The notes below the pieces were generated by a model that was not told the DNA's origin, did not search any database, and saw nothing but the letters and a program-made list of their open reading frames with translations. 64,000 nucleotides of DNA from a virus (taxonomy: Duplodnaviria > Caudoviricetes). The first letter of the stretch is position 1. Each line of letters starts with the position of its first letter. The stretch covers positions 1 through 64,000 of the IMG/VR virus record IMGVR_UViG_3300043013_000026; one strand, 5' to 3'. Shown piece after piece: positions 5,333 through 54,347 of this stretch. Made by a program: the position numbers and the translations under genes.

Positions 5333-5879
5333 ACTTATCAACAAAACTTGGGCAACATTCGCTGCCAATTACATATTTCTTGGGAATGGTATTCCACGGT
5401 TCGCCAGGCTCGGCTATATCGGCACGATACCACAGGCAGTGATAGCGGTCGAAGCAACCTTTAGAAAGACAAAACTCGGCACCGAAATATTTGATACGGT
5501 TGTACACGGTGCGAGAGATGAATTTGTATTGGTCGCGGAGAATAGTGCGGTTGAGCTTTTCTGGTACCTTACCACGGAGTATCAGTTCCTTTGTCGCAAA
5601 CAGGTTGAATGGGTCGTTGACATCAACGAGGAATTGCATTGCCTTTGCGGTAGAGGCTTGGTAGTTCGGTTTTCTTAGTGGCTGGGTGAGCTTATACACT
5701 GCGCCACTGATAACCAACGTGTCAGGCTCCGGATTATCCATCCAGCACTTCCAATACGCGCAATCAAAGCATAACTGTTCTCCTCTCATTCTGGTAACGA
5801 GCGGCGTTTTAATCATGCGATAGGGTTCAACATCCTCTCGCTTTCCACAAAATGAACAGGTGATAAAAGTCTGTGCCAT
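5310..5879 (-). CDS. Hypothetical Cys-rich (possible Zn-binding) protein, 189 aa
   Basis: CSFC, CFDC, CLSKGC, CCP motifs. Confidence 0.7.
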   Translation of the reverse strand: MAQTFITCSFCGKREDVEPYRMIKTPLVTRMRGEQLCFDCAYWKCWMDNPEPDTLVISGAVYKLTQPLRKPNYQASTAKAMQFLVDVNDPFNLFATKELILRGKVPEKLNRTILRDQYKFISRTVYNRIKYFGAEFCLSKGCFDRYHCLWYRADIAEPGEPWNTIPKKYVIGSECCPSFVDKYELCNSD

Positions 5880-6729: not shown

Positions 6730-8682
6730 TTATATGGTTTTGAAGCTCTCAATGGTAAAAATCGGGATGCCGAGGGCTTTCGCTTTCTCAGCTTTTCCTG
6801 ATGTTGTATTGAGGTCTGCGACGATGAGGTGAGTTGTCTTCTTAGAAACGCTGCTTACCACTTCGCCACCTTGTGCTGCGATTTCTGCTTCCAGCTCTTT
6901 GTCACGGACACCTGTGAAGCAGACCTTAAAACCTTGGTATTTATCACCAATAGGTTTAGCGGGTTCTTCCATAGGTAGCATGACCAGTTTGTTGGTTGCT
7001 ATAAAATCGTAGAACGGAACAATGCCTTTGAGGAATGATTGCAGTGTCTTATTGAGTGCCAAGAACTCCGGGGTTTGGTCAAAGCCTTCATTAGTCCTGA
7101 CGAGACCGTTGACAAAAGCGAAGCGGTCGCTTTCGGATAGTTCTAAAAGAATACTTTTGGCTTTGACTTGTCCAATGCCTTGGAAACAATCGCTGGCGTG
7201 CATGAGCTTGGTGAGTTCAACGCCTTCACGGATTTTCTTGTTGGCATCAAGTATAGCATTAGCAATCACTTCGCCAAAGGTATCAATTAGAAGCAGCTCA
7301 TCAAAGGTAATGTCAAGAATACGCCTGATGGAGTCATACCCGGCTTTGAACAATTTCGTAATTGTCTCCTCGCCGAGCTGCTCAGCTTCCAGAATGTTGT
7401 AGAAATGGATAATCTTAGCCAAACGTATGCCTGGACAGTCGGAATTTGTACAGATGAGCTCTACCTGCGTATCGTTCCACTTAGTAGGCTGACCGCAATC
7501 CGGACAATATAGGAGCTCATCACGCTGCTCGATCATTGTATCAGAGTCGGCTTCTTCCAGTACATTGAGAATTTTAGGTATCACACCGCCTGAGCGTGTA
7601 ACTGTAATCTTTGCACCTTTGCCAATGCCATTCTCGAAAATGTACTTGGCATTGTAACCTGTGGGACACTCCATTGTGCAATCTCCTGTGTTGACCGCTT
7701 CAATGTTGACTACCGGCTTTAATGCGCCGGCTTTGCTAATTTTCCAGTCCACTCCTTTGACGGTCGTCTCAAACACGTCAGTAAAGTCGGGGTGTTTGTA
7801 GGCGATAGCATAGAGAGGATTGCCGGTTGTCTGTTGACGACCGATAGTGTCCCAAAGATTGAGGTCGTTGAGATAGATTACAAGTCCGTCGATGTAATAT
7901 AACTTGCGCCACTCTTGGAATAGTTCCATAAGCATAGCGTCATCCAGTTCGTTGACGGTAATCGTTTTTCCGAGATATGGCTGATTGAAAACGTCGCAAA
8001 GTTCACGATACAATGCTTCGTATGTGCTGAAGTTGCCAAGGTCGCCTTCGCCAATGCCATACCTGAAGAATTGCAAGAACCTGATTTTGTCTGAAGCATC
8101 ATCACGATTGATGAAGCCTGCGACTGTGTTACGTGGTGAGCGGTATGGTTCGCCTGTGGCGTCTGATACTTGACCTACAAAGTTGGCTTCCCAGCTTGCT
8201 CTACTGAAGACAAGCTCACCAAAGGTGAACTCAGGCGATAACTGTTCGTTGCCCCAAGGGTTCTTCTTATCGAAGTTTCCTTTGAGATAATGCTGGGTGC
8301 AAATCTGCCCTTCGTTGTCAGCACCGCCACGAGAATATGTAGCACCGGTTCTTTCATCGTGTAGCCAAGATATGCCATCGAATTTAGGATTGATGACGAG
8401 TTTGGCGGTTTCAGGGAGAGCCAGTGACTTCATCCATTGTTTTACCTCATTCAAAGATTTTGCTTTGTTGAGAGATTTCATAGGATGAGGCAGCTTGACT
8501 TTTCTACCTTTGCCTACTGTGGCAGGCTCTGTGTGCTTGAACCAATCATTTTCCGGATCAAGCGCTCTCAGTTCATCCATCTCTTTGTCATATTCCGCAT
8601 CAGATATGACCGGGTTGCCGGCCCTGTATGCTTCGTTATGAGCTTTGATGGAGGCGAGTAGTTGGTCTATTTTATTGCTCAT
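6730..8682 (-). CDS. ligA: NAD+-dependent DNA ligase
   Basis: YRAGNPVISDAEYD, KFDG adenylation motif, SRGG, RSGGVIPKI, Zn finger CPDC...CTNSDC, C-terminal BRCT (VCFTG...SVSKKT); start likely MSNKIDQ at 8682. Confidence 0.95.
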   Translation of the reverse strand: MSNKIDQLLASIKAHNEAYRAGNPVISDAEYDKEMDELRALDPENDWFKHTEPATVGKGRKVKLPHPMKSLNKAKSLNEVKQWMKSLALPETAKLVINPKFDGISWLHDERTGATYSRGGADNEGQICTQHYLKGNFDKKNPWGNEQLSPEFTFGELVFSRASWEANFVGQVSDATGEPYRSPRNTVAGFINRDDASDKIRFLQFFRYGIGEGDLGNFSTYEALYRELCDVFNQPYLGKTITVNELDDAMLMELFQEWRKLYYIDGLVIYLNDLNLWDTIGRQQTTGNPLYAIAYKHPDFTDVFETTVKGVDWKISKAGALKPVVNIEAVNTGDCTMECPTGYNAKYIFENGIGKGAKITVTRSGGVIPKILNVLEEADSDTMIEQRDELLYCPDCGQPTKWNDTQVELICTNSDCPGIRLAKIIHFYNILEAEQLGEETITKLFKAGYDSIRRILDITFDELLLIDTFGEVIANAILDANKKIREGVELTKLMHASDCFQGIGQVKAKSILLELSESDRFAFVNGLVRTNEGFDQTPEFLALNKTLQSFLKGIVPFYDFIATNKLVMLPMEEPAKPIGDKYQGFKVCFTGVRDKELEAEIAAQGGEVVSSVSKKTTHLIVADLNTTSGKAEKAKALGIPIFTIESFKTI

Positions 8683-8731
8683 AATTAATGATAAGGGCGC
8701 ACCAAAAGATGCGCCCATTTTAGAGTGAATA

Positions 8732-9202
8732 TTAGTGAGTGCCCGTTGATTCAAAGCCACCCTCTCCGCGAGTGGTATCATCCAGTTCGTCAACAACGGT
8801 GAAATCACCGCTATAGTGAACTTCGATAACCATCTGAGCGATACGGGTGCCGGCAGTTACCATAAACGGTTTCTTTTCACAGCTCTTGACGATGACACCG
8901 ACATTGCCGCGATAGTCTGCATCCAGTGTACCTTGGATGACATCGGCGTTGAAACGCTTAGGAATTTTCTTGTAACCTGTCTCGGTAAGTTCGTGACCCT
9001 CGAAGCCTTTAGCTGCAAAGCCTGAACGAGGGCGAATGTGACCTTCTTGACCAGCGCCGAGAGCGATGGAGATGTCAAGAGGAACAATGTTACGACCGGG
9101 CTCTATGATTGTGTCATTGGGAACATACAGGTCATAGCCGGCAGAGAACTGTGTGCCTCTGGTAGGCACTTTGGCTCCAGGTGAGAGTAATTTGATATTC
9201 AT
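8732..9202 (-). CDS. dut: dUTPase (trimeric type)
   Basis: SAGYDL, IRPRSG, GTLDADYRG, RIAQMV, RGEGGFESTG motifs. Confidence 0.95.
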   Translation of the reverse strand: MNIKLLSPGAKVPTRGTQFSAGYDLYVPNDTIIEPGRNIVPLDISIALGAGQEGHIRPRSGFAAKGFEGHELTETGYKKIPKRFNADVIQGTLDADYRGNVGVIVKSCEKKPFMVTAGTRIAQMVIEVHYSGDFTVVDELDDTTRGEGGFESTGTH

Positions 9203-10765: not shown

Positions 10766-12091
10766 ATGGCTAACGCAGAATTATCAGATAAAGAAATCTC
10801 TCAGTTGCTGGAAAGTACCTTTATGACCAGCAAAAAGAGCGTACAGGAATATGTACGGGAGATTGAGCGCCGATGCCGCTTTCAGTCTGCCTATAGGCAC
10901 CTCCAAAACGGAACGGTGCTGGATGACCGTAGCCGCCTCATAGACATCTACGATGCCTGTGTGCAACAAGACGCTCATCTACGTGGCGTACTGGAAACTC
11001 TGTTCTCTCAAATTGTGGGAGAACGATTTATGATGGCTAAGCAAAACGAGAAAGGCAAATATTCTAAGGACATTCCAGCGACCAAGAAAATCCAGAACAC
11101 TGAGTTCCTGAAGATTATCTACGGTATTGCTGAGTCGAAGCTGTATGGATATACCGGTCTTGAGTTCTTGGTTGACCCAACTCTGGAACATAATGGACTG
11201 AAGGTGAACTTTGTTGAGCGCCGTAATATTCTTGCAGACCAACGCCGTATCGTTCAGCGACAAGGAATATGGATGCCTCAGTGGAATTTCGATGACCCGA
11301 AGTATGCAGACCATTATGTTCTTGTGAATAACGGTGACTTGGGATTGTTCTCTGCTGTTGCTCCGTTAATATTAGCCAAGAAGTTTACATTTGCCAATTA
11401 CGTTAACTTTTCTCACACCTATGGTCAGCCTATTATTCATGGCAAAACCGAGTCTGAGAATACCATTGACCGTAAGCGAATGGCAAACGATATAGCGAGT
11501 GCTGCTCAGAATAAGGTTATTGTAACTGGTCTGAACGATGAGGTGGATATTAAGACTTTCACGATGTCGAACTCAGAGCAGGTGTTTACCGGGCTTATTG
11601 CTATTGTTGATAAAGACGTGTCAAATCTTATTCTCGGTTCTGAGTCAATCGCCGGTGCTACCCAATCGTATGTTGGTGCTACTCGTGCGCACGAAAACAT
11701 TTTCCGTGACCGTATTGAGGTGTATCGTGATTACATTGAGCTGGTGATGAACGAGAGCATCGTGCCTCGTCTTGTTCGTCTTGGATATTTGCCGGACGGT
11801 CTTGAGTTCAAATATGCGAAACGTATTGAGATGTCAGACGAAGACCGCATACGCTTATTCCAGAACTTAACTGCTTCTTGGGAAATGGATCCTGAAACTA
11901 TTGAGCAGGAGTTTGGTGTGAAAGTTAAACGTCAGCTGAATGTTATGACTGAAGGTGCTGGTGGTACTCCGTCCGGTGGAGGCGGCGGCTATAGCAATAA
12001 TACAACTCGTCATTTAACCGATGAAGAATATTTTAGACGTTACGGGCACGCTCGTAATACCAAAAATTTTCTTCGGGAGAGGGGGCAATAG
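10766..12091 (+). CDS. Portal protein (DUF935 / Mu gp29-like)
   Basis: DAHLRGVLET, LYGYTGLE, YGQPIIHGK, SNLILG, HENI motifs; first gene of head module. Confidence 0.8.
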   Translation: MANAELSDKEISQLLESTFMTSKKSVQEYVREIERRCRFQSAYRHLQNGTVLDDRSRLIDIYDACVQQDAHLRGVLETLFSQIVGERFMMAKQNEKGKYSKDIPATKKIQNTEFLKIIYGIAESKLYGYTGLEFLVDPTLEHNGLKVNFVERRNILADQRRIVQRQGIWMPQWNFDDPKYADHYVLVNNGDLGLFSAVAPLILAKKFTFANYVNFSHTYGQPIIHGKTESENTIDRKRMANDIASAAQNKVIVTGLNDEVDIKTFTMSNSEQVFTGLIAIVDKDVSNLILGSESIAGATQSYVGATRAHENIFRDRIEVYRDYIELVMNESIVPRLVRLGYLPDGLEFKYAKRIEMSDEDRIRLFQNLTASWEMDPETIEQEFGVKVKRQLNVMTEGAGGTPSGGGGGYSNNTTRHLTDEEYFRRYGHARNTKNFLRERGQ

Positions 12092-12108
12092 GTCCGACCC
12101 TACTCTCC
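12064..12108 (+). other. Putative -1 programmed ribosomal frameshift signal linking portal to gpF-like ORF
   Basis: In-phase A AAT TTT (12064-12070), 5-nt spacer, stem GGAGAG(GGG)/(CCC)..CTCTCC 12076-12108; -1 frame open into 12112 ORF. Confidence 0.6.
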
Positions 12109-12111
12109 AAC

Positions 12112-12990
12112 GTGATGGCATTACGACATCCAGATACAAGCGAGGACCGGCATGAAAAAGAGGTGGCAGTATTGTTGGCTCTATTCCATGATTTTGTCAT
12201 CAGTGTTGCTAATCAGGAGAACGAATGGGATACACTGGAAGATTTGATGGAAGCTCGTGCTGACATTATGATTAGACGAGCACTGGATGGTTTTGGCATT
12301 ACGTTTGAAGATGCAATAAAGCTCATCCGTGAAGCTGAAGGTCTTGACAGTGAACAGATTGCCCAACGAAATATTGTTATGGCGGCTGTTGATAACCTTG
12401 TTGATTTCTCAGTAGTCGCGGAGTACCAGATGGCCGATGACATGGCTGAGCTGGAAGAAGAACTTAGCGATGAGGAGTCTGAAGATATGGATGATGACGA
12501 CTGGAAGCTGTTTTTCTTGCCTGTGTTCAAGCGTTTCAACGACCAATATATGCGTACAGAAAATCAGGATGCGGAGTATTCAATGATTGTTGCTGCTTTT
12601 CTTGCAGCTGTCAGAGATGATACTGTGCTGATGTACATGACACAAGGCGATGAGCGTGTGCGCCCTTGGCACTTGCAGTATGAGGGCTTCACGGCACCAA
12701 AATCTCGCTTCCCGGCTTGGCTGATACCGCCTATTGAATATCAGTGCCGTTGCTATTTGGTTGAGGATACCGCTTCAATAGACGGAAAGTCAAACCTTAG
12801 CTCGGTTCAGGCAATGGCCACTCCTGAGATGCCTGATTGGTTCAACCGCACATTTAAGGAGAGCGTTGCGCTGGGTGGTCGAATTTTCTCAGATGAACAT
12901 CCATACTTCCAAGTTGATGAGCGACATGTTGGCCGTCTCAATGCCATAGCTAAACGAATTAAAGCGAAATATTATGACGAGAATCAATAG
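12112..12990 (+). CDS. Head morphogenesis protein (Mu gpF / SPP1 gp7-like)
   Basis: YMTQGDERVRPWH...PPIEYQCRC signature; FSDEHPYF tail; follows portal. Confidence 0.85.
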   Translation: MMALRHPDTSEDRHEKEVAVLLALFHDFVISVANQENEWDTLEDLMEARADIMIRRALDGFGITFEDAIKLIREAEGLDSEQIAQRNIVMAAVDNLVDFSVVAEYQMADDMAELEEELSDEESEDMDDDDWKLFFLPVFKRFNDQYMRTENQDAEYSMIVAAFLAAVRDDTVLMYMTQGDERVRPWHLQYEGFTAPKSRFPAWLIPPIEYQCRCYLVEDTASIDGKSNLSSVQAMATPEMPDWFNRTFKESVALGGRIFSDEHPYFQVDERHVGRLNAIAKRIKAKYYDENQ

Positions 12991-19032: not shown

Positions 19033-19075
19033 TTTCACCTCATCGTTCTTTAATCCCTCTATTCTTGAGTGAAAG
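19033..19075 (+). promoter_or_regulatory. Candidate late promoter (copy 3)
   Basis: TTTCACC-19nt-CTATTCT...AAAG right after a terminator. Confidence 0.6.
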
Positions 19076-19098
19076 TAAACTTTAATATATTCAACAAA

Positions 19099-19497
19099 AT
19101 GGAAGATAAGGAAAATCTTGAGACCGTAGAGCAGGAAGATGCTCTTGATCCGAAATTGCAAGCAACCATCGAAAAGAAGGTTGCCGACCTAAAAGAAGCC
19201 AATCCCAAGGCTAAGGTTTACCCCTTGCTCGTATTTGGCGAGGGTGACGATGAGAAAGAGGTTTATGTAGGCTACTTCACCCAGCCTTCATTCCCCACCT
19301 TCTCGAAGTACATGACATTCGCACAGAAAGACCAAGTGTCGGCTATGCGTCAGCTCGCTAAGGACTGTTTCCTCGACGGTGACAAGGAACTTATCGACGA
19401 TGACTCACTGTTCCTGTTCGGTCTTATGGGCCAGCTTCAGCACATCATTAAAATGCGCGGTGGCCGTGTCATAAATTTATCGAAACCTGGGAAGTAA
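19099..19497 (+). CDS. Tail assembly chaperone (gpG-equivalent)
   Basis: Between tube and tape measure; likely start MEDKEN at 19099. Confidence 0.75.
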   Translation: MEDKENLETVEQEDALDPKLQATIEKKVADLKEANPKAKVYPLLVFGEGDDEKEVYVGYFTQPSFPTFSKYMTFAQKDQVSAMRQLAKDCFLDGDKELIDDDSLFLFGLMGQLQHIIKMRGGRVINLSKPGK

Positions 19498-32290: not shown

Positions 32291-32460
32291 TTGTAAGAAA
32301 CAACATTGAACTGACTGCCAGATATTATGGCACAAAAGCCATAACAGCGGTTTATCGCGGTGCTCATTTGATATGGGAGGCCGTGAATAGCTGTTTTGGC
32401 AGTGGTTACTGGATTAAAGAAAAAGCCTGGAGCAACACCGACTCTTGGCGTATCAACTAA
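32287..32460 (+). CDS. Small 57-aa Trp-rich protein missed by ORF track
   Basis: ATGA overlap; MIVRNNIELTARYYGTKAITAVYRGAHLIWEAVNSCFGSGYWIKEKAWSNTDSWRIN*; fills the gap exactly. Confidence 0.7.
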   Translation: MIVRNNIELTARYYGTKAITAVYRGAHLIWEAVNSCFGSGYWIKEKAWSNTDSWRIN

Positions 32461-32471
32461 TAAATACCAAT

Positions 32472-35400
32472 ATGGCAAAAAGAACTATTATTGACAGCGC
32501 CATTCCTTCGATTGACACTCCTTGGGATGACGGAAAAAACGCCTATAGTGGTAAAGCGGTGGAGGACTTCATCAAGAGTCAGCTATCCTCTAAGATTGGC
32601 TATGCGGTCATTCCACAGGAGAAGGACACTGATGGATACTACCATATATGGGGCTTCGCTTCCCAGTCCGCTTATAACGACTATTTGACTGACACCGTAG
32701 GAGGTGCGTCGCTGCGTTTGTTGAATGTTGCCATCCCTCTGCTTGAAGAGCAGGGCGGCGTGAGCAACATTGTTACTTTGACTCGTAATTCGGCTGCATC
32801 TTTAGTTACGAGTAAGGCGGTGGCAAGCGTAAATGTATCTTATCTCTGGCAACAGTACAACCCTGTCACAAAGGAAACTACTGACCAAGATGAAGATGCT
32901 ACTATCGTTGTGTCATGTCGTACTCAAAACTCAAGTGGCACATGGGGTTCATGGGACTCCAGTAAGTCGTTCTCGGTCAATATTCAGTCCGGGCAGACTA
33001 AGACAATCGACCTTAGCTCTCTCCTGACTTCTGATGCAACTTATCAGGTGCGTTTGGTAGCCACAGGTGAAACAAGCGGAATTTCTGCGAGCCCTGTAAC
33101 AATGACTATCGTGTATTCTAACGTTTCTGCTACGTATGACGGTTCAATCGCGACTGCATACAAGGGCGGTAGTATTCAGCTCCCGTTCCGTATTACAGGT
33201 AGCGTTCAGAAGCAGCTCCGTATCAAAATCAATGGATACACAAAGAATTACACGTTGGGTACGACAACGTACACCGATAACACGTATGGCGCAGCGGTTA
33301 CTCAAACCGAGTTTGGGTTGGCTCGTGGTGCAGTGAAGGCAGAAGCATGGATTGCTTTTGGCGACAACTATTCTGCTGAGACAGAGCACCAAGAGTTCCA
33401 GTTTATCTACATTCCTGAAGGCGATACCGTTACAACGCCTATCTTGGCAGTAACGGATGTCGTAAGCGAGTTTGAAAACTGGACACGTACTACTATCTTC
33501 CGCTATGCTATCTACAATCCGCAGAAAGATTCGACAACAGTACGCCTGACCCTTCAGGACCGCGACACCGGTCAAATCTATATTCAAAAGGATCAGGAGT
33601 GCGTTAATGGGACAGCCTATGAGTTTGATGAGAACTTTGCAATGGAGTATGAAGGCGATGACCAGCCTACTACTATCAATGCACAGGTTACATTCACGAA
33701 CACTTCAGGCGTAACCTATGGTAACAGTATCAACTTCACAGTTGACAACTCGGAAAATTTCGCTCCGACAAAAGGTGCAAATGTAATTGTATCAGCTGAG
33801 AAGAAGACAATCACTATTGACGACGTTTCTTATGAGCTGAACGATCTCTTGAGCGATACTGAAGACACCAATTCAGGATGGAGCAGCAACGCCGAAACCG
33901 ATGCTACCGGTGCGTCTGTCAATGTCCCGGTCCTCAGTATTGCCGCCGGCAACCGTGTGACAATCCCTTATGAGCTTTTCGATGATAACACCGGTCGTAA
34001 TGACGGTGGCGTTGAAGGCTCTATTACAATGGAGTTTGACATCAAGGTTAAGAACATTGTAGGTGATGCAGAAATCATCGACGCTTCAGCGGATTTCAAC
34101 GGTGGCTACACAGGTTTGAAGTTTTATCCGACTCGTGCCGTTTGCCTGAGCCGAAATAACTACACTGAGGAATTGGCTGACGTTAACTTCCAAGAAGAAG
34201 TACGTGAGCATATCGCTATCAATATCATCCGTAACCTCCGTGGTGAAGGCATGAACCTTGTGCGTATCTATGTCAATGGTAAATCGAACCGCTCGTTCAT
34301 TTATACTGACGAGGATTACTTTACGCCTATCGGTGAAAAGGGCGCACAGAACATTATTATCGGTTCTGATGAGGCTGATGTTGATGTTTACGGCATCCGC
34401 ATTTACAAAGGTCAGCAGCTTGGTTCTACCCAAATTCAGAACGATTACATGGCCGGTATGCCTACGATTGAAGACAAGAAACTGTTCAAGCGTTACAATT
34501 CAATCTATAATGGCTCGGAGATTGGTTATGACCTTTGTAATGCAATGGGTCTTAACACTATTCTCCGTAAAATTCCTGAAGGCGGCCACTATCCCTCACG
34601 CGAAAATCAAAGCAAGCAAACCAACGTTACCATAGATGTTCGCATTTATAATGAGCGTGGTAATGCAGATAGCCTCGATATGAAGCACTCAGGAACTTTT
34701 GTTGGCATGACTGACAAAGGTCAAGGTACTTCAGCGAAAGGCTACTATTGGTGGAATATCACGGATGGTTTTGAGGATGATGTTGAGATTGAGCTTGCCG
34801 ACTACAATGCTTCAGACCCGACTCATTATACTTCCGATGGCAAGTACTACCGTAAGAAATCATACTTCAATTCTCTGGACGGCACAAGCCAAGTCTATGC
34901 CAGCAAGTACGAATTGGAAGATGGTCGTGGTGGCATTACAAAGCTCGTTGGTAAAGCCAACTACGCTTCTCCTATGCAGAGCCATAAGCTCGGTGCAATT
35001 TGGATGTATGATGAGCTTTGGCAAACTCTTGTCAACGATGGCTCTGATGACCGTCCTGTTCTGTCAAATACTCACGTTACCTGTTATGAGAAACCGTTCT
35101 TGTGCTTCTATCAGATAGGCAACGGTAATCCTATATTCTGTGGCTTCCAAACTTGGGGTAGCGGTAAAGGCGATAAGAAAACCTTTGGCTACGACAAGAA
35201 AAAGAGTCCGGGCTACTTGTGTATCTCAGGCGCTGATAATGGTGCAATCGCAGCACTTTTCCAGATGCCCTGGAATGTTTCTCAAAACGCTGACGGTGCA
35301 TGGGAAGGCAACATTTATGCTAAGAGTGTAACCATTAACACCGGTGACGTGAAGAACGGTTACTGCTATAAGAGCGGCACCAGCGACACATTGTCATTTG

Positions 35401-38400
35401 AGGTTGAAATCGGTAACAAATACGATGGCGGCGAAACTGACAAAGGCGTTCTCCGTATTGAGGACGAGGCGAAGGGCGAATCAGAGACTACTCTCTTTAC
35501 AACATTCGCTGAGTTCGCCAACTTTTTGTTCGCTTGCTCGCCGTTATTGAAGCCATACGCCGGCACTGAGTCTCAACTTATTGCTGACAGTGCAAATCTT
35601 ACACGTGACCATCAGTATTGGCTGTTCAACTCAGGTTCTGACCGTTACAACGTTTACTACTACAATCCTGCTACTTCTAAATTTGAGAAAGTAAGTAAAA
35701 TTCCGACTGCATGGGGTAGCGATGGTAGAGCATACGCTTATGGTAGTCCGAAACTTACTGAGCAGTTGGCCGGCGTAACCATTACGGTTGATACGGTTAA
35801 TGGCTCTCAGAGCATGACACTGGAAGACGCATTGAGTACTCTCGGTACGTCTGACATGAATGTGGTTAATGATTGCTTCTCAAAGGCGAGAGTGGCTTAT
35901 TTTGCCAACCATGCTTCAGCCTACATCGACACCAAAGACGTTATCTTCCACCAGTGTCAAATCAAGTTGCTTGGTGGTACCGATAACCGTACCAAGAACA
36001 CTTACTACTGCATTGACCCGGCTATTGACTTGTTGGTACGTTTGAAACAGGATGACTTGGATACTATCTTGAAGACCGATAACCAAGGTCGTCAAACCAA
36101 GCCTTACTATGTACTTGAACATACTAAGGATGCAAGTGGCAGCAACTACTGGAACGGTGAAAACAACGTTCTCTACACGTTGATCGAGCGTGCATATCCT
36201 GAACGTATGCGCACAATGATGCGTAACATGTTCGCTCAGATGGCACAGATTGCAGGTAGCGTTGAAAACTACTTCCAACAACGTTTCTACTGGGTTCAAG
36301 AGTACTTCCCTGCTGTTGCATATAACGAAACCAGCCGCCTTCTCTACGAGGTTGCTCAGGTTAAGTTGATGAATGGCTTGATTGATGTGAGCCAAGACCC
36401 TATCACTCAGGCAGTAGGCGACCAGCTGGAGTGCGAAAAGCAATTTATGAACCAGCGTCTTCCGATGTTGATGTCATGGTGCGAGTATGAAACCGGTGGC
36501 GATGGTACAGTCAGCTTCCGTTCAGTAAACAGTGTCAGCGGTCAATCACCGACATACGACATTGAATACACTGCATATCAATACATTTATCCGAAGCTTG
36601 CAGTCGGCGGTTACATCGCTACTCTGTATGCCAAGATTGATGGCGAATGGGTAAGCCAAGGTAGCGACCCGTATCTGTGTGCTCCCGGCGAAACGGTACG
36701 ACTGGTTATCGCCAGCACCGACTCTAATACCCAGTTTACACTGAGATGGATGCACTACGCTAAGAGCATTGGCAATCTTGGTACATTGCCTTGCGGTGAA
36801 GACGGTAGCGTCACTATCACAGGTAAGCGTTTGCGTAAACTGGAATGTTGGTCTGAAGACGGTGTGCCTATTGAGTTCCACCCGAAAGGCTTGGTAATCT
36901 CAAATTGCCGTAACTTGGAGGAAGTGAACTTGACTAACGCTTCGGCTTTCTCAGGAACATTCTCAGCCGACCTTCCACGTTTAAGAAAGCTCCTCCTCAG
37001 TGGCTCTGCTTACACCAGTGCGTCGCTTCCTAAGACTTCTACGTTGACTGAGGTCGAATTGCCGAGTACCGTCAATGCTATTACGGTTGACGGTCAGCCT
37101 AACCTTGCCAGTCTGACGATTGATGGTTTGTCAAGTTTGCGTACCCTCCGTATCGTTGGCAAGCATAAAATTCAGAAACAGACGCAATCAATCGTTCAGC
37201 TCGCTTACTCTCAGGCTGCAAACGCAAACAGCGTTCAGATTGACAATGTAAGCTGGACCGGCGTATCGGTTGACGTGATGATGTGGTTGCAGAAGTTGAA
37301 AGCTTCTTTGACCGGAACTATCAGCTTGACCGGAACTGTGACTTTTGCTAATAAGGTTGCGCTGGTTGGCATATACGGAAACATCGACTCTACTTCAAAT
37401 TCGTTGTATCTCAGCTATACCAAGCGTAGTATTAACAGTATAACTGTCAATGGCTTAACGTATATTTCAGAAACCGGAACATACCAATATGAAGTCGTTT
37501 GTTCGCCTTCAACCGGTAACGACGTGGCTATCAAGGATGGTAAGCTGGATGTTCTCTGGGAAATCGATGATGCCGCTAAAGCTTATGCTTCTTTCACTGA
37601 CTCTGTTAACGGAGTTTTGAAAGTCACTAAGCTGGATGAAAGCGGCACTGACACTCGATATGTTGCTCAGTGTACCGTGACTAAGACGGGTGGCACAACC
37701 CTTGTATCAGAGTTCCAAGTAGGCTTCTATCGCCGAATCCCGAAGATTGGCGACTTCGCTTATGCGGATGGCACTTTTGATGACCAATATCTGAAAGATA
37801 AGACGCTGGTTGGTATCATCTACAAAATTGATGAGATGTGGCAAGGTGATGGCGATGCTGAACCGACTATTTACACCGGTTATAACAAACCTACCGAAAC
37901 ATACAAAGCAAGTCACAAACTTGTTGGTTATCAGCTTAGTATCGACTGCAAAGAAAATCTTCCTTGCAAGAGCACTGATGGCTTCATCAATACCGGTAGC
38001 ACTGTTTGGGGTCTTTATCCGTCCAACGACTCGAATGGTCATACTGCAATTCAGAATGAGATTATCGCCGCAACCGGTATCTCAAGTATCTTTGACCTTC
38101 CGGGCATCAGTAATATCAGTAGCCGAGGTCTGTCTGGCGGTACAAGTAATGACTATGTGACAACCGGCAACTACATCGACACCAATGAAGACGACGGTTT
38201 CAAGGATTACAGTACCGGTTCTGGCTGTGTGACCGACTGGAGTGGCAAGAATAAGACGCTTGCAATCGTGAAACACGCAACTCAAATCATCTCAGCTTAC
38301 CTGCTGTCTGAAGCTAATGAGTCAGTTGCAACTAACTATGATGACGATGACGGCGTAAATCACGAGTTCGCTGAAGTTCCGACTACCGTTGAGGAAATGG

Positions 38401-39029
38401 CAAACGCTATGGAGATACTTTACAAGGCTAACAATAACCTGACGAAGTATCAACAGTTCCTTTACCCTGCCGGCTTTGGATGTTATCTCTATCAGCCTAC
38501 CGTTAAGGACGGCGAGGAGCTTGACCCTCAGTATGCTTCGACAAACTGGTATCTTCCCGCTTGTGGTGAAGAATATCGTCAGTATAGCTTCTTTGCTAAA
38601 TCAAGAACAGGCGGCATGGGTGATACTTATTCTGTTGGTCAGAATACATCTCCAGCTGCAAGTGTCATTGACAAAATGATTACTGACGCATTGGCTTCAG
38701 AGGAGTCAAATGAAATAAATTTGAATGTTTCTCCCTCTCATGTGGAGTACAGAAACTATACTGGTATAGAGATGGCTGCAATTAACCGCTATTTCCATAG
38801 CCTTGTAGAGGCTGAGAAACCGATTTATTCGATGGCTCTTTGGCGTGCTTTGGTGGCAAATGGTTCCGCACCGTTCACCCAGCACAGCACTGGCTACCAT
38901 TGGTCATCCACCGAGTACTCATCCAACTACTCGTGGTTCGTCTATTTCGGCTATGGTTATAGCTACTACTACAGCAAGTGCTTCACTTTCGTTGTTCGCC
39001 CTGCTGTAGCCTATCAGTTTTTTCTTTAA
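32472..39029 (+). CDS. DGR target: very large tail fibre/adhesin with C-terminal C-type-lectin-fold variable domain
   Basis: Start likely MAKRTII; WYLPACGE and WSSTE...W.V.F..G...VRP motifs; 3' end matches TR. Confidence 0.9.
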   Translation: MAKRTIIDSAIPSIDTPWDDGKNAYSGKAVEDFIKSQLSSKIGYAVIPQEKDTDGYYHIWGFASQSAYNDYLTDTVGGASLRLLNVAIPLLEEQGGVSNIVTLTRNSAASLVTSKAVASVNVSYLWQQYNPVTKETTDQDEDATIVVSCRTQNSSGTWGSWDSSKSFSVNIQSGQTKTIDLSSLLTSDATYQVRLVATGETSGISASPVTMTIVYSNVSATYDGSIATAYKGGSIQLPFRITGSVQKQLRIKINGYTKNYTLGTTTYTDNTYGAAVTQTEFGLARGAVKAEAWIAFGDNYSAETEHQEFQFIYIPEGDTVTTPILAVTDVVSEFENWTRTTIFRYAIYNPQKDSTTVRLTLQDRDTGQIYIQKDQECVNGTAYEFDENFAMEYEGDDQPTTINAQVTFTNTSGVTYGNSINFTVDNSENFAPTKGANVIVSAEKKTITIDDVSYELNDLLSDTEDTNSGWSSNAETDATGASVNVPVLSIAAGNRVTIPYELFDDNTGRNDGGVEGSITMEFDIKVKNIVGDAEIIDASADFNGGYTGLKFYPTRAVCLSRNNYTEELADVNFQEEVREHIAINIIRNLRGEGMNLVRIYVNGKSNRSFIYTDEDYFTPIGEKGAQNIIIGSDEADVDVYGIRIYKGQQLGSTQIQNDYMAGMPTIEDKKLFKRYNSIYNGSEIGYDLCNAMGLNTILRKIPEGGHYPSRENQSKQTNVTIDVRIYNERGNADSLDMKHSGTFVGMTDKGQGTSAKGYYWWNITDGFEDDVEIELADYNASDPTHYTSDGKYYRKKSYFNSLDGTSQVYASKYELEDGRGGITKLVGKANYASPMQSHKLGAIWMYDELWQTLVNDGSDDRPVLSNTHVTCYEKPFLCFYQIGNGNPIFCGFQTWGSGKGDKKTFGYDKKKSPGYLCISGADNGAIAALFQMPWNVSQNADGAWEGNIYAKSVTINTGDVKNGYCYKSGTSDTLSFEVEIGNKYDGGETDKGVLRIEDEAKGESETTLFTTFAEFANFLFACSPLLKPYAGTESQLIADSANLTRDHQYWLFNSGSDRYNVYYYNPATSKFEKVSKIPTAWGSDGRAYAYGSPKLTEQLAGVTITVDTVNGSQSMTLEDALSTLGTSDMNVVNDCFSKARVAYFANHASAYIDTKDVIFHQCQIKLLGGTDNRTKNTYYCIDPAIDLLVRLKQDDLDTILKTDNQGRQTKPYYVLEHTKDASGSNYWNGENNVLYTLIERAYPERMRTMMRNMFAQMAQIAGSVENYFQQRFYWVQEYFPAVAYNETSRLLYEVAQVKLMNGLIDVSQDPITQAVGDQLECEKQFMNQRLPMLMSWCEYETGGDGTVSFRSVNSVSGQSPTYDIEYTAYQYIYPKLAVGGYIATLYAKIDGEWVSQGSDPYLCAPGETVRLVIASTDSNTQFTLRWMHYAKSIGNLGTLPCGEDGSVTITGKRLRKLECWSEDGVPIEFHPKGLVISNCRNLEEVNLTNASAFSGTFSADLPRLRKLLLSGSAYTSASLPKTSTLTEVELPSTVNAITVDGQPNLASLTIDGLSSLRTLRIVGKHKIQKQTQSIVQLAYSQAANANSVQIDNVSWTGVSVDVMMWLQKLKASLTGTISLTGTVTFANKVALVGIYGNIDSTSNSLYLSYTKRSINSITVNGLTYISETGTYQYEVVCSPSTGNDVAIKDGKLDVLWEIDDAAKAYASFTDSVNGVLKVTKLDESGTDTRYVAQCTVTKTGGTTLVSEFQVGFYRRIPKIGDFAYADGTFDDQYLKDKTLVGIIYKIDEMWQGDGDAEPTIYTGYNKPTETYKASHKLVGYQLSIDCKENLPCKSTDGFINTGSTVWGLYPSNDSNGHTAIQNEIIAATGISSIFDLPGISNISSRGLSGGTSNDYVTTGNYIDTNEDDGFKDYSTGSGCVTDWSGKNKTLAIVKHATQIISAYLLSEANESVATNYDDDDGVNHEFAEVPTTVEEMANAMEILYKANNNLTKYQQFLYPAGFGCYLYQPTVKDGEELDPQYASTNWYLPACGEEYRQYSFFAKSRTGGMGDTYSVGQNTSPAASVIDKMITDALASEESNEINLNVSPSHVEYRNYTGIEMAAINRYFHSLVEAEKPIYSMALWRALVANGSAPFTQHSTGYHWSSTEYSSNYSWFVYFGYGYSYYYSKCFTFVVRPAVAYQFFL
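38884..39010 (+). repeat. DGR variable repeat (VR)
   Basis: 127 bp colinear with 39716-39842; all 17 mismatches are at TR adenines. Confidence 0.97.
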
Positions 39030-51387: not shown

Positions 51388-52116
51388 ATGAAGGACTTTA
51401 CTGTGTCTGTACGCAAGCTTACAGACATTGAACTTTTAAGGGAAGCGTGCGAAACGACTTTCTTGGGAACGAGTCATGCGTCGTTAAGTTCTCTTTACAA
51501 GTCTGAACACTCCCCGGTGAGGACCCAACTCTTCTGGATCAGCCTTAAAAACATCCCGCTCTTTGTGAGCACTCATCTCCTTCGGCATCACGTTGGTTCT
51601 GTTCCATTCCAGCTATCTTGCCGAGATGACCGCAAAGGTGGCAACCCAGGTTTGCCCGGTCGAGTAGAGGAAATCAAAACACAGTTGCAATCTATTTTGG
51701 ACCATTTTTCAAAAGGAGGCAGCTACCACAACGGTATTCATACCGAAGCCGAAAACATTATCACAGAATTAGATTGGATTGCAGAAAACACAGACCGTCA
51801 AACTCCGGTGAACCTCAGTCTGTGTATCAATGCCCAATCCCTTATTGACATGGCGAAACTCCGTCTTTGTACTGGGTGCGCTTCAAAAGAAACAGTGATT
51901 GTCTTCCGCGCCATTAAAAATGAAATCGCAAAAATTGACCCTGAGTTAGCTGCTATGATGGTTCGCAAGTGTGTGTACCGCAATGGCCTGTGCGGAGAAC
52001 CACGCTGTTGTGGATTTAATCACACTTCAGAGTTCCAAGCTGAACTTGGAGATTACGTTTCTCACTTCTCAGAGAAACAAATAGGAATAAACCTCAAATC
52101 CGATACAACAAAATGA
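51388..52116 (+). CDS. thyX: FAD-dependent thymidylate synthase-like protein
   Basis: EHSP, VSTHLLRHH...S.R, INAQSL...LRLC, CVYR..C motifs; coupled to RNR. Confidence 0.7.
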   Translation: MKDFTVSVRKLTDIELLREACETTFLGTSHASLSSLYKSEHSPVRTQLFWISLKNIPLFVSTHLLRHHVGSVPFQLSCRDDRKGGNPGLPGRVEEIKTQLQSILDHFSKGGSYHNGIHTEAENIITELDWIAENTDRQTPVNLSLCINAQSLIDMAKLRLCTGCASKETVIVFRAIKNEIAKIDPELAAMMVRKCVYRNGLCGEPRCCGFNHTSEFQAELGDYVSHFSEKQIGINLKSDTTK

Positions 52117-54347
52117 CCATACAAGAATGGCTTAACAACGAGGATTTGCCTATCACCATTTGGAAGAAGAAATACCAGCAAAACGGAGAAGACTTCGAGC
52201 AATGGCTTGATAGAGTTTCAGGACAGGACGAAGAAGTAAAAGCTCTAATTCGTGATCAAAAATTTATCTTCGCCGGTCGAATTTTATCTAATCGTGGCGT
52301 AACTGGAAGGCACTTAACTTTAAGCAACTGTTACGTGTGTACACCGCCTGAAGACAACTTGGAATCAATTTTTGAGGCCGGCGCAAAAATGGCGCGTACC
52401 TTTAGTTATGGCGGTGGATGTGGACTTGATGTAAGCAAACTGCGTCCGAAAGATGCGCCTGTAAACAATGCCGCAAAGACCACTTCAGGTACTGTCAGTT
52501 TTATGGACTTCTACAGTTACATAACTGGATTAGTGTGTCAGCAGGGCCGACGTGGAGCAACAATGCTCAGCATTTCTTGCGAGCACCCAGACCTTATTGA
52601 CTTCATTAATCTCAAGTCAAATCTGGACGTATGCACCAAAGCAAACATCTCAGTGCGCGTAACCGATGCCTTTATGAAGGCGGTAGAAAACAACGCTGAC
52701 TTCACACTACATTTCACATTGGAAGATGGTTCAGAAATCAAAAAGGTTATCAACGCTAAAGAAGTATTCATGCTCTTGGCGAAACGTAATTGGGAGATGG
52801 CTGAACCCGGTATCCTTTATTGGGACCGAATTGCTAACTACAATTTGCTCCAGAATACAGGATTTCAATATGCTGGTGTGAATCCATGCGCCGAAGAACC
52901 TCTGCCGCCCGGCGGGAGCTGCCTACTTGGTAGCATCAACCTCAGCAAGTTCGTCGTGCATCCATTTACCAACGTTGCTTTCATTGATACTGACCGTTTG
53001 GCTGAGACGGTGGAGGTAGCTGTAAGGGCTTTAAATGATGTGCTTATGGAAGGCTTACCGCTTCATCCGCTTCAGGAGCAACGTGACGCTGTGAGGGACT
53101 GGCGACAAATCGGTCTTGGCACTCTTGGTCTTGGTGATATGCTTATTATGTGCGGATTGAAATATGGCTCTCGTGAATCATTAGAGACAATCCGCTCAAT
53201 CTATCATATTATCGCTGCTTCAGCAGTTCACGCCTCGCTTCAGATGGCAAAACAGTATGGGGCGTTCCCTAAATGTTCATCAGAAATCAAAGAAGCAATC
53301 GTTAAGTCTGATTTCGTTCAGTACTTAAATTTGCCGGATTCAATTCTGGATGAAATTAAGGAGTACGGTCTTTACAACTCTCAGCTTTTGACTTGCGCCC
53401 CGACCGGAACAATCGGCACAATGCTTCAGGTGAGCACCGGCGTTGAACCAAACTTCGCTTTCTCTTATAATCGACGCACCGTTTCTTTGAACTCTGAAGA
53501 AACAACATATAAAGTAGATACCAAAATCGTATCTGACTTCAGAAAGGCGACCGGCATGACGGAGCTTCCAGACTATTTTGTATCCTCTGCTGATATTGAT
53601 TACCATGATCGTGTTCGCGTTCAGGCAATGCTTCAGAAATACATCGACGCATCAATTAGCTCTACCGTTAATCTGCCTAACAGTGCCACTATTGAAGATG
53701 TCGCCGACCTTTATATGGAAGCCTGGATAAATGGTTTGAAGGGTATCACAATATGGCGTGACGGTTGTCAACGTCAAGCTATCCTCTCAACCGATAAAAA
53801 GGAAGAGCCTAAAAAAGAATCTGAGCCTGTTGACGAAAACGCTCCGACAAAAGTTAAGAAGGCTTCAGACGACTGTATCGGTCGTAAACGCACTCTTGTT
53901 ACCGGTTGTGGCACTTTGCATCTCACAGCGTTCTTTGACCGTCACACTGGGCAATTACTGGAGACATACTTCAGCAAGGGCTCACAAGGTGGCTGTGCAT
54001 TGTTTATGGTTGGCTTGTCGCGCATGGTCTCTTTGGCTGCTCGTGGTAACATTTCAATCCATGACATTGTTGACCAGCTAAAGAGTGCTGGCACGTGTCC
54101 GTCTTACGCTGTTAGAAAAGCCACTCGCAAAGACACTTCAATCGGTTCGAGCTGCCCGGTGGCAATCGGCTATGCTTTGATTGATATGTATAACGAGTTG
54201 CAAAAGGAGCTTCATGGTGAGCAACATCAGGAAGAAAATAAGCAACCCAGTGTGGACTCTCCAAAGTGTCCTAAATGCGGTGAGCCTATCCAGATGGTAG
54301 AAGGTTGTATGACCTGTGCATCGTGTGGATACTCCAAATGTAGCTAA
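52113..54347 (+). CDS. nrdJ: Class II (adenosylcobalamin-dependent) ribonucleotide reductase
   Basis: SNCY, GGGCG, RRGA, NISV, NPCAEEPL, CLLGSINL, APTGT, C-terminal TSCPD-like domain and Zn ribbon; no small subunit nearby. Confidence 0.9.
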   Translation: MTIQEWLNNEDLPITIWKKKYQQNGEDFEQWLDRVSGQDEEVKALIRDQKFIFAGRILSNRGVTGRHLTLSNCYVCTPPEDNLESIFEAGAKMARTFSYGGGCGLDVSKLRPKDAPVNNAAKTTSGTVSFMDFYSYITGLVCQQGRRGATMLSISCEHPDLIDFINLKSNLDVCTKANISVRVTDAFMKAVENNADFTLHFTLEDGSEIKKVINAKEVFMLLAKRNWEMAEPGILYWDRIANYNLLQNTGFQYAGVNPCAEEPLPPGGSCLLGSINLSKFVVHPFTNVAFIDTDRLAETVEVAVRALNDVLMEGLPLHPLQEQRDAVRDWRQIGLGTLGLGDMLIMCGLKYGSRESLETIRSIYHIIAASAVHASLQMAKQYGAFPKCSSEIKEAIVKSDFVQYLNLPDSILDEIKEYGLYNSQLLTCAPTGTIGTMLQVSTGVEPNFAFSYNRRTVSLNSEETTYKVDTKIVSDFRKATGMTELPDYFVSSADIDYHDRVRVQAMLQKYIDASISSTVNLPNSATIEDVADLYMEAWINGLKGITIWRDGCQRQAILSTDKKEEPKKESEPVDENAPTKVKKASDDCIGRKRTLVTGCGTLHLTAFFDRHTGQLLETYFSKGSQGGCALFMVGLSRMVSLAARGNISIHDIVDQLKSAGTCPSYAVRKATRKDTSIGSSCPVAIGYALIDMYNELQKELHGEQHQEENKQPSVDSPKCPKCGEPIQMVEGCMTCASCGYSKCS

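Follow-up and report, generated by a model that had tools for sequence, protein, structure and literature searches.

The stretch of DNA analysed here (the window) covers the initial 64 kb of the virus record IMG/VR IMGVR_UViG_3300043013_000026, which has a length of 109,334 bp, derives from a gut Bacteroides-type phage, has direct terminal repeats and is rated complete. In the window, the gene for a Mu-type portal protein is followed by the gene for a protein that resembles the minor head proteins of the MuF/gp7 family. Comparison of this gene pair with its relatives makes it very likely that programmed -1 ribosomal frameshifting, at a site where the portal gene ends, joins the MuF/gp7-like protein to the portal. 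Such a fusion had been proposed in an initial annotation made from the letters of the window, and it is now supported by a conserved signal at the gene junction, by covariation in the accompanying hairpin, by missing MuF start codons in most relatives, by natural portal-MuF fusions and by analogy with the tail chaperone genes.

The final codons of the portal gene read ACC AAA AAT TTT CTT CGG GAG AGG GGG CAA TAG. The slippery heptamer is laid out as A (12064), AAT (12065-12067) and TTT (12068-12070), an in-phase X_XXY_YYZ arrangement at a run of five A's and four T's (A5T4), with the TTT seven codons ahead of the portal stop, exactly as the initial annotation had described it. The stem of the hairpin that begins 5 nucleotides (nt) further on consists of GGAGAG (12076-12081) paired with CTCTCC (12103-12108), then an A.G mismatch and then four more pairs, formed by a G.U pair and GGG/CCC. 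Both the sequence and the computed fold agree with the earlier description of this structure. The portal frame is closed by the TAG at 12089 and the MuF-like protein is encoded in the -1 frame, which means that the window does not hold a single in-frame portal-MuF open reading frame (ORF). The -1 frame opens at 12058, reads SSGEGAIGPTLLSNVMALRH from 12070 on, contains no stop and is the same frame as that of the ORF 12112..12990. The predicted portal-MuF fusion would consist of 435 plus 306 residues, and the total of 741 residues corresponds to the length of about 741 residues expected from the initial annotation. A Gly-rich stretch of the portal, GAGGTPSGGGGG, which had been read as a linker, is indeed found near 11955-11990.

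For a comparison of the junction among related phages, a megablast search with the junction region gave no match in the phage collection, and relatives were obtained by protein-level searches instead. A protein-pattern scan of IMG/VR yielded 66 loci. Together with MT835494 and the temperate Bacteroides salyersiae phage BS-TP1 (PQ571274; PMC12694917), which is the closest cultured relative, these relatives cover a range of 53-99% portal identity to the window. The set used for the comparison of phase comprises 66 loci in which both genes are present, namely the window, BS-TP1, MT835494 and 63 IMG/VR contigs. From these, 40 distinct junctions were used for the heptamer, 39 distinct junctions for the folds and 47 distinct loci for the start codons. 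The alignment of junctions that the initial annotation had suggested as a check reveals that the heptamer, its phase, the 5-nt spacer, a covarying hairpin and a -1 MuF are kept in the 66/66 loci, down to a portal identity of 53%. At each of these loci the MuF-like gene lies in the -1 frame of the portal gene, and that frame is open from a point 5' of the portal stop. The distance between the portal stop and the MuF-like gene varies by multiples of 3 nt only.

The heptamer is present in phase as NNA AAT TTT in 40/40 distinct junctions. Its synonymous alternatives, AAC and TTC, do not occur at the slip site in any of them (0/40), compared with an AAT share of 66% among the Asn codons and a TTT share of 53% among the Phe codons of the same portal genes. 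The codon before AAT is AAA, CAA, ACA, GTA, GCA, GGA or GAA, so that it encodes seven different amino acids, and it ends in A throughout, whereas A makes up 24% of third positions. Because seven differing codons all end in A, and AAC and TTC are not used, selection must act here on the nucleotides and not on the protein.

When the 39 distinct junctions were folded one by one to their minimum-energy structures, the hairpin was found to begin 5 nt past the heptamer in nearly all of them, with 10-14 base pairs and energies of -12 to -25 kcal/mol. The portal stop is situated within the hairpin loop in all junctions, 22-25 nt past the start of the heptamer (31 nt in one locus). For six clade relatives folded singly, the z score of the hairpin ranges from -2.2 to -5.5. 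The sequences of the hairpin arms diverge between lineages and include GGAGAGAAGA/TCTTCTCTCC, ACGGAAGAAGAA/TTCTTCTTCCGT, GGAGGAGA/TCTCCTCC and GGGAGCGGAA/TTCCGCTCCC. Both sides have changed in 9/11 pairs, and the observed covariation score was matched in 0/500 shuffles, a control that ignores phylogeny. The true pairing register also outscores every slid register. Taken together, the junctions display an in-phase heptamer, a covarying structure 4-10 nt further on, a coding -1 frame and lowered synonymous variation, the features by which a -1 frameshift cassette is recognized in sequence. It is this comparison with relatives, rather than the statistics of the window alone, that places the signal far beyond chance.

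If the MuF-like protein were translated independently, a start codon would be expected close to its conserved N terminus. Only 5/47 distinct loci contain an ATG among the 25 codons nearest to the slip site, and the median position of the first ATG is codon 56. GTG or TTG is present in 25/47 loci, scattered as by chance and at no fixed position. MT835494 contains no ATG, GTG or TTG across 81 codons, and four further loci (L013, L039, L050 and L021) contain none across 55-59 codons. The translation of the -1 frame can nevertheless be aligned from the slip site onwards in all relatives. Divergence at the three codon positions is 0.50/0.31/0.65 just 3' of the hairpin, compared with 0.43/0.30/0.65 in the body of the MuF-like gene. 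The stretch 5' of the first ATGs of the relatives is evolving as coding sequence, and it codes for a helix that is predicted with confidence at residues 25-48 of the -1 segment.

In the window and its 99% relatives L003 and L004, a GTG-ATG pair lies just past the hairpin. At the homologous place in other loci, an ATG is found only in L054-L056 and a GTG in L024, L026 and L057; L016 has an ATG further 5', which overlaps the portal stop. The leader preceding the MuF ATG in the window has an A content of 0.20 and a GC content of 0.60, the lowest A and the highest GC among 18 start-codon leaders (two MuF candidates included), most of which have an A content of 0.36-0.56. This leader lies partly within the stem, and the initial annotation was correct in setting it apart from the A-rich leaders of the neighbouring genes. 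In the window lineage, which combines the weakest hairpin (with the mismatch at 12101-12102) with the GTG-ATG pair, expression may be shifting towards a partly independent initiation of MuF. Some free MuF may be produced from the GTG at 12112 or the ATG at 12115 in the window phage, as a lineage-specific addition to the frameshift. The annotated start of the MuF-like protein of BS-TP1 (ATG, L001 5449) falls within sequence that is conserved with the window, and the sole upstream candidate is a TTG at 5365. Judged by its sequence, the annotated N terminus of this protein is probably wrong.

A search for longer MuF homologues identified two loci in which portal and MuF are encoded by a single ORF, L069:2001-4262 and L070:699-2990, with lengths of 753 and 763 residues (P0001 and P0002). 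The two fusions come from different samples and share an identical downstream gene order. In both, the slip site and the hairpin are replaced by an acidic, lysine-rich linker, and the Asn-Phe pair is lost. In a tree of portal proteins, both fusions are nested within the frameshift clade. The occurrence of natural fusions within the clade therefore indicates that a covalent portal-MuF protein works. In addition, as the Asn-Phe pair is lost in the fused relatives, it is not needed by the portal and is kept only where slipping is needed. The sequences suggest a switch from frameshift to permanent gene fusion, and the fully fused relatives imply that MuF on every portal subunit is tolerable. Inspection of L069 and L070 for a second, dnaX-like slip site revealed A_AAG_GGG and C_AAA_AAG in one and neither in the other, with nothing conserved between them.

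The tail chaperone genes of the same phage serve as an internal control. The heptamer A_AAT_TTA is present at 19473-19479, in phase in the ORF 19069..19497 and 22 nt ahead of its stop, which is the classic position for the chaperone pair G/GT. The -1 extension comprises 61 residues, runs to about 19660 and ends before the tape measure gene (19774). Among 32 related loci, most chaperone junctions keep the heptamer and an extension of approximately 60-64 residues; the exceptions are one locus with G_GGT_TTA and three loci without a heptamer under the frame assignment used. The use of one A AAT TTN design at both sites, to which the initial annotation had drawn attention, is therefore real and is conserved in the relatives. 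It follows from the conserved chaperone site that the clade uses the same type of heptamer where frameshifting is established biology.

Similar junctions are present in more distant lineages. In the Elizabethkingia phage TCUEAP3 (OK632026; L074:3598-3904), whose portal is approximately 21% identical, an in-phase T_TTA_AAT_TTT_TTC is situated 25 nt ahead of the portal stop. It is accompanied by a hairpin of -21.8 kcal/mol (z = -4.8), and no stop interrupts the -1 frame over 104 codons, which lead into the gene annotated as 'minor head protein'. In the annotation a 'gap' of 276 nt separates this gene from that of the portal, and the gap is an open -1 frame. From these sequences, the annotated MuF of TCUEAP3 is probably truncated, and the same frameshift is likely to operate there. 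In Hankyphage p00 (BK010646; L108:13257-13305, minus strand), T_TTT_TTC occurs in phase at the end of the portal gene, together with a hairpin formed by GCCCCG and CGGGGC. MuF is encoded there in the -1 frame and has an ATG overlapping the 3' end of the portal gene. Where its portal gene ends, the Winogradskyella phage Peternella_1 (L073:3205-3340) has ten consecutive A's (A10) with A_AAA_AAA heptamers in phase, and from there the -1 frame is open into the next gene, annotated 'head morphogenesis/portal'; polymerase slippage is also possible there. The Flavobacterium phages lotta8-2 (L071:3563-3572) and FPSV-S1 (L072:3740-3749) belong to the same portal family, and in both the MuF gene occupies the +1 frame and has an ATG of its own, 4 nt past the portal stop. 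The frameshift design is therefore not universal.

The assignment of the downstream protein to the MuF family depends on several observations. The protein encoded in the window scores 22.1-22.3 bits against the Pfam profile PF04233 (Phage_Mu_F), which falls short of the cut-off (29.6), and the match is confined to the C-terminal portion of the profile. Among 30 relatives, 29 match PF04233 at E <= 0.01, with a best value of 9e-7. An AlphaFold2 (AF2) model of the -1 segment has a predicted local distance difference test score (pLDDT) of 85; residues 1-15, which are encoded by the hairpin, are disordered, and the first helix, at residues 25-48, is predicted with a pLDDT above 90. In BFVD, a library of predicted viral structures, this model matches proteins described as 'phage head morphogenesis domain' (E 7e-7). 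No meaningful match to a solved structure was obtained in a profile search of the PDB or with Foldseek against the PDB. The homologue in BS-TP1 is annotated as a Mu F-like domain protein. Because the score of the window protein is below the cut-off, while the relatives, the predicted fold and the position after the portal agree, we refer to the product of 12112..12990 as MuF-like and not as a certified member of PF04233.

These observations can be combined into a model of how the two proteins would be produced. Most ribosomes would read AAT TTT, unwind the hairpin and terminate at the TAG at 12089, releasing the 441-residue portal. Some would stall on the hairpin that starts 5 nt 3' of the heptamer, and the tRNA-Asn in the P-site and the tRNA-Phe in the A-site would move back by one base, from A_AAU_UUU to AAA_UUU. 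Translation in the -1 frame would then continue through the short disordered linker into the MuF/gp7-like protein and produce the 741-residue portal-MuF. The C terminus of a portal protein points to the capsid interior; for this reason MuF would be placed inside the head, and the fusion would bring it into the procapsid covalently. The rate of slipping would set the number of MuF-bearing subunits among the twelve portal subunits, and the fusion may remain intact or be cleaved by the prohead protease. We infer the slipping itself, its rate, the fate of the fusion and its role in MuF copy number from the arrangement of the genes, in which the fusion would be a minority product that fixes the copy number of MuF.

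A broader proposal appears to us slightly more credible than not. According to this proposal, in the clade and in other Mu-like Bacteroidota phages, including those of the Hankyphage type, full-length MuF would mostly have no start of its own and would be made only as a frameshift extension of the portal. Slippage would set how many of the twelve subunits bear MuF, the portal vertex would thereby lose its symmetry, and the arrangement would evolve back and forth with gene fusion.

Several points weigh against the portal-MuF frameshift. The fusion product is predicted from sequence alone, and the efficiency of the heptamer was measured in E. coli and not in Bacteroides. Many of the loci are related to each other, so the 66 loci represent far fewer independent events. 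A limit on how many subunits bear MuF is not a strict requirement, as the full fusions show. The GTG-ATG pair, which occurs in the window and in its 99% relatives L003 and L004, is a place where MuF could start by itself. Two further points concern the window alone. Its hairpin, with the A.G mismatch, is the weakest among those examined, and it does not stand out from dinucleotide shuffles (z = -1.0), as 31/200 shuffles fold equally well. The heptamer is not avoided elsewhere, since A_AAT_TTN is found in phase at 14 sites in the ORFs of the window. Because it is this common, the heptamer by itself is probably only weakly shifty. Two of the 14 sites are situated 25-28 nt from the end of an ORF (stop included) and followed by a long -1 frame, namely the portal site (306 codons) and the chaperone site at 19473 (61 codons). 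At the remaining 12 sites the -1 frame closes after 1-23 codons. An open run of approximately 14 codons is expected to arise by chance about half the time. Taken by itself, the evidence from the window (hairpin z score and heptamer count) is weak and does not exceed chance.

Some of these points would fit a MuF that is translated without any frameshift, from the GTG at 12112 or the ATG at 12115, with the hairpin as an element of mRNA stability, attenuation or coupling and the Asn-Phe pair retained for the function of the portal. The position of the GTG-ATG just past the hairpin in the window and its closest relatives agrees with such a start, as do the non-significant hairpin of the window, the common in-phase heptamers and the Flavobacterium phages of the same portal type in which a +1 MuF has its own ATG. 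We nevertheless regard independent initiation as unlikely. No ATG is available near the conserved N terminus in 42/47 distinct relatives, and some of them have no ATG, GTG or TTG for 55-81 codons that are yet coding. Conservation of amino acids cannot explain why the third bases of synonymous codons are fixed, or why seven different codons before AAT share a final A, and a requirement of the portal for Asn-Phe is contradicted by the loss of this pair in the fused relatives. Nor would there be an explanation for a spacer that stays at 5 nt and a -1 phase that is constant. The same constancy makes it very unlikely that MuF is a separate protein made by termination and reinitiation, or from a near-cognate start (ATA, ATT or CTG) just past the hairpin. 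The portal stop lies in the hairpin loop, a geometry that could serve coupling too, and some relatives have an ATA or TTG soon after the hairpin. However, reinitiation works in any phase and does not account for an invariant heptamer with a constant -1 phase, no near-cognate codon has a conserved position in the alignment of the -1 frame, and the natural in-frame fusions show that the covalent product is functional.

A change of frame at the level of nucleic acid, by transcriptional slippage or by indels in the A/T run within the population, is to our judgment barely credible. The run is A5T4 in the window and A10 at the same junction in Peternella_1, the latter being of a length at which a polymerase can slip. 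In many relatives the run is no longer than A3T4-5 (for example, GTA AAT TTT), which is too short for efficient polymerase slippage. The precisely spaced, covarying hairpin on the 3' side is, moreover, a hallmark of ribosomal frameshifting. Transcriptional slippage was rejected as the main mechanism on the grounds that many relatives have three A's only.

Table 1. Coordinates of the portal-MuF junction and its elements in the window
Feature	Position	Strand	Basis or remark
Portal gene (zero frame), Mu-type, 441 residues	10766..12091	+	ORF list; Pfam PF06074 Portal_Mu
Slippery heptamer A_AAT_TTT, portal phase	12064..12070	+	Sequence
Spacer between heptamer and hairpin, 5 nt	12071..12075	+	Sequence
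Stimulatory RNA hairpin (predicted)	12076..12108	+	Fold of -14.8 kcal/mol; portal stop 12089-12091 inside loop
-1 frame segment: 15-residue disordered linker, then MuF/gp7-like minor head protein; 306 residues after the shift	12070..12990 (including stop)	+	
GTG-ATG pair, possible independent MuF start	12112..12117	+	3' foot of hairpin; sub-lineage-specific

The identity of the portal gene is clearly defined. Its product matches PF06074 (Portal_Mu) over profile positions 2-336 of 336 with an E value of 2.4e-43 and 149.2 bits (cut-off 23.9), and it is 87% identical to the annotated portal of BS-TP1. On the 3' side of the MuF-like gene there are two small ORFs, followed by a ClpP-like prohead protease with a Mu gpI-like part. 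Elsewhere, the window encodes an NAD-dependent DNA ligase with a BRCT domain (6730-8808, minus strand), a 2,194-residue protein without a Pfam match (32445-39029, plus strand) and the large subunit of a ribonucleotide reductase with a TSCPD domain (52113-54347, plus strand). No tRNA genes were found in the 64-kb window with ARAGORN.

The elements of the junction resemble those of known frameshift sites. The sequence A_AA.U_UU.Y falls in the H_HH.U_UU.Y class, which is among the most efficient heptamers in E. coli (PMC4066793). Bacterial stimulatory hairpins begin 4-10 nt past the heptamer (PMC4066793), and the 5 nt of the window are inside this range. The -1 frameshift cassettes of dnaX and of IS3/IS911 (PMC4066793, PMC5009743) have, like the portal junction, an X_XXY_YYZ heptamer that is followed after 4-10 nt by a hairpin, and the functional product of IS3 is OrfAB, a transframe fusion. 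The differences are that the heptamer here is A_AAU_UUU instead of A_AAA_AAG, that no upstream Shine-Dalgarno-like stimulator is seen and that the host belongs to the Bacteroidota.

Among phage structural genes, the closest parallel is the tail chaperone pair G/GT, whose -1 frameshift is known from lambda and from most phages with long tails (Xu, Hendrix & Duda 2004, as cited in PMC7302621 and PMC6316719). As in G/GT (SPP1 gp17.5/17.5*), an in-phase heptamer is located near the end of a structural gene, and a short and a C-terminally extended product would be made in a fixed ratio; the chaperone site of the same genome has a nearly identical heptamer, A_AAT_TTA. In contrast to G/GT, the proteins involved here are the portal and a minor head protein, the extension is a whole folded protein of 290 residues that is a separate gene in other phages, and a strong covarying hairpin is present.

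The fusion of portal and MuF as such is known. In-frame portal-MuF fusion genes have been published for actinophages, in the Microbacterium phage clusters EA3/EA5/EA8 and EB (PMC7302621), and a 'portal and MuF-like fusion protein' is annotated in mycobacteriophages (PMC9584339). The end product, with MuF attached covalently to the C terminus of the portal, is alike in both cases. There, a single ORF places MuF on all subunits, whereas here both portal and portal-MuF are predicted to be made. In SPP1, gp7 enters the capsid by binding to the portal and is present in few copies (PMC6316719). The order of the genes in SPP1 is comparable, with a MuF/gp7-family gene right after the portal gene, and so is the delivery of a few copies into the capsid via the portal. 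The association of SPP1 gp6 and gp7 is non-covalent and involves two separately translated proteins, whereas a peptide bond made by recoding is predicted here. A search of the literature found in-frame portal-MuF fusions, but no portal gene for which frameshifting had been reported. In the paper describing PRFect, MuF is mentioned solely with regard to toxin fusions, and the word 'portal' is absent from the available portion of the text of a 2016 review of recoding. The mechanism is of a known kind, and the gene pair and the role are new.

If the portal-MuF frameshift is real, it would add a new and widespread case to the structural genes in which phages use -1 slippage, so far those of tail chaperones, capsid and tube proteins. 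The portal is the best conserved and most studied part of the tailed-phage head, and no recoding event in it was found in the literature. Annotation would be corrected in many gut Bacteroidales phages, in which MuF starts are truncated or arbitrary and 'intergenic gaps' appear after the portal gene, with BS-TP1 and TCUEAP3 as examples. The junction also offers a natural system for frameshifting in Bacteroidota, whose translation initiation is unlike that of E. coli, and as BS-TP1 is in culture, the claim is open to a direct test. For the biology of these phages, the frameshift would explain in a simple way how an internal protein of low copy number, and in other phages the toxin domains that are attached to MuF, are brought into the capsid.

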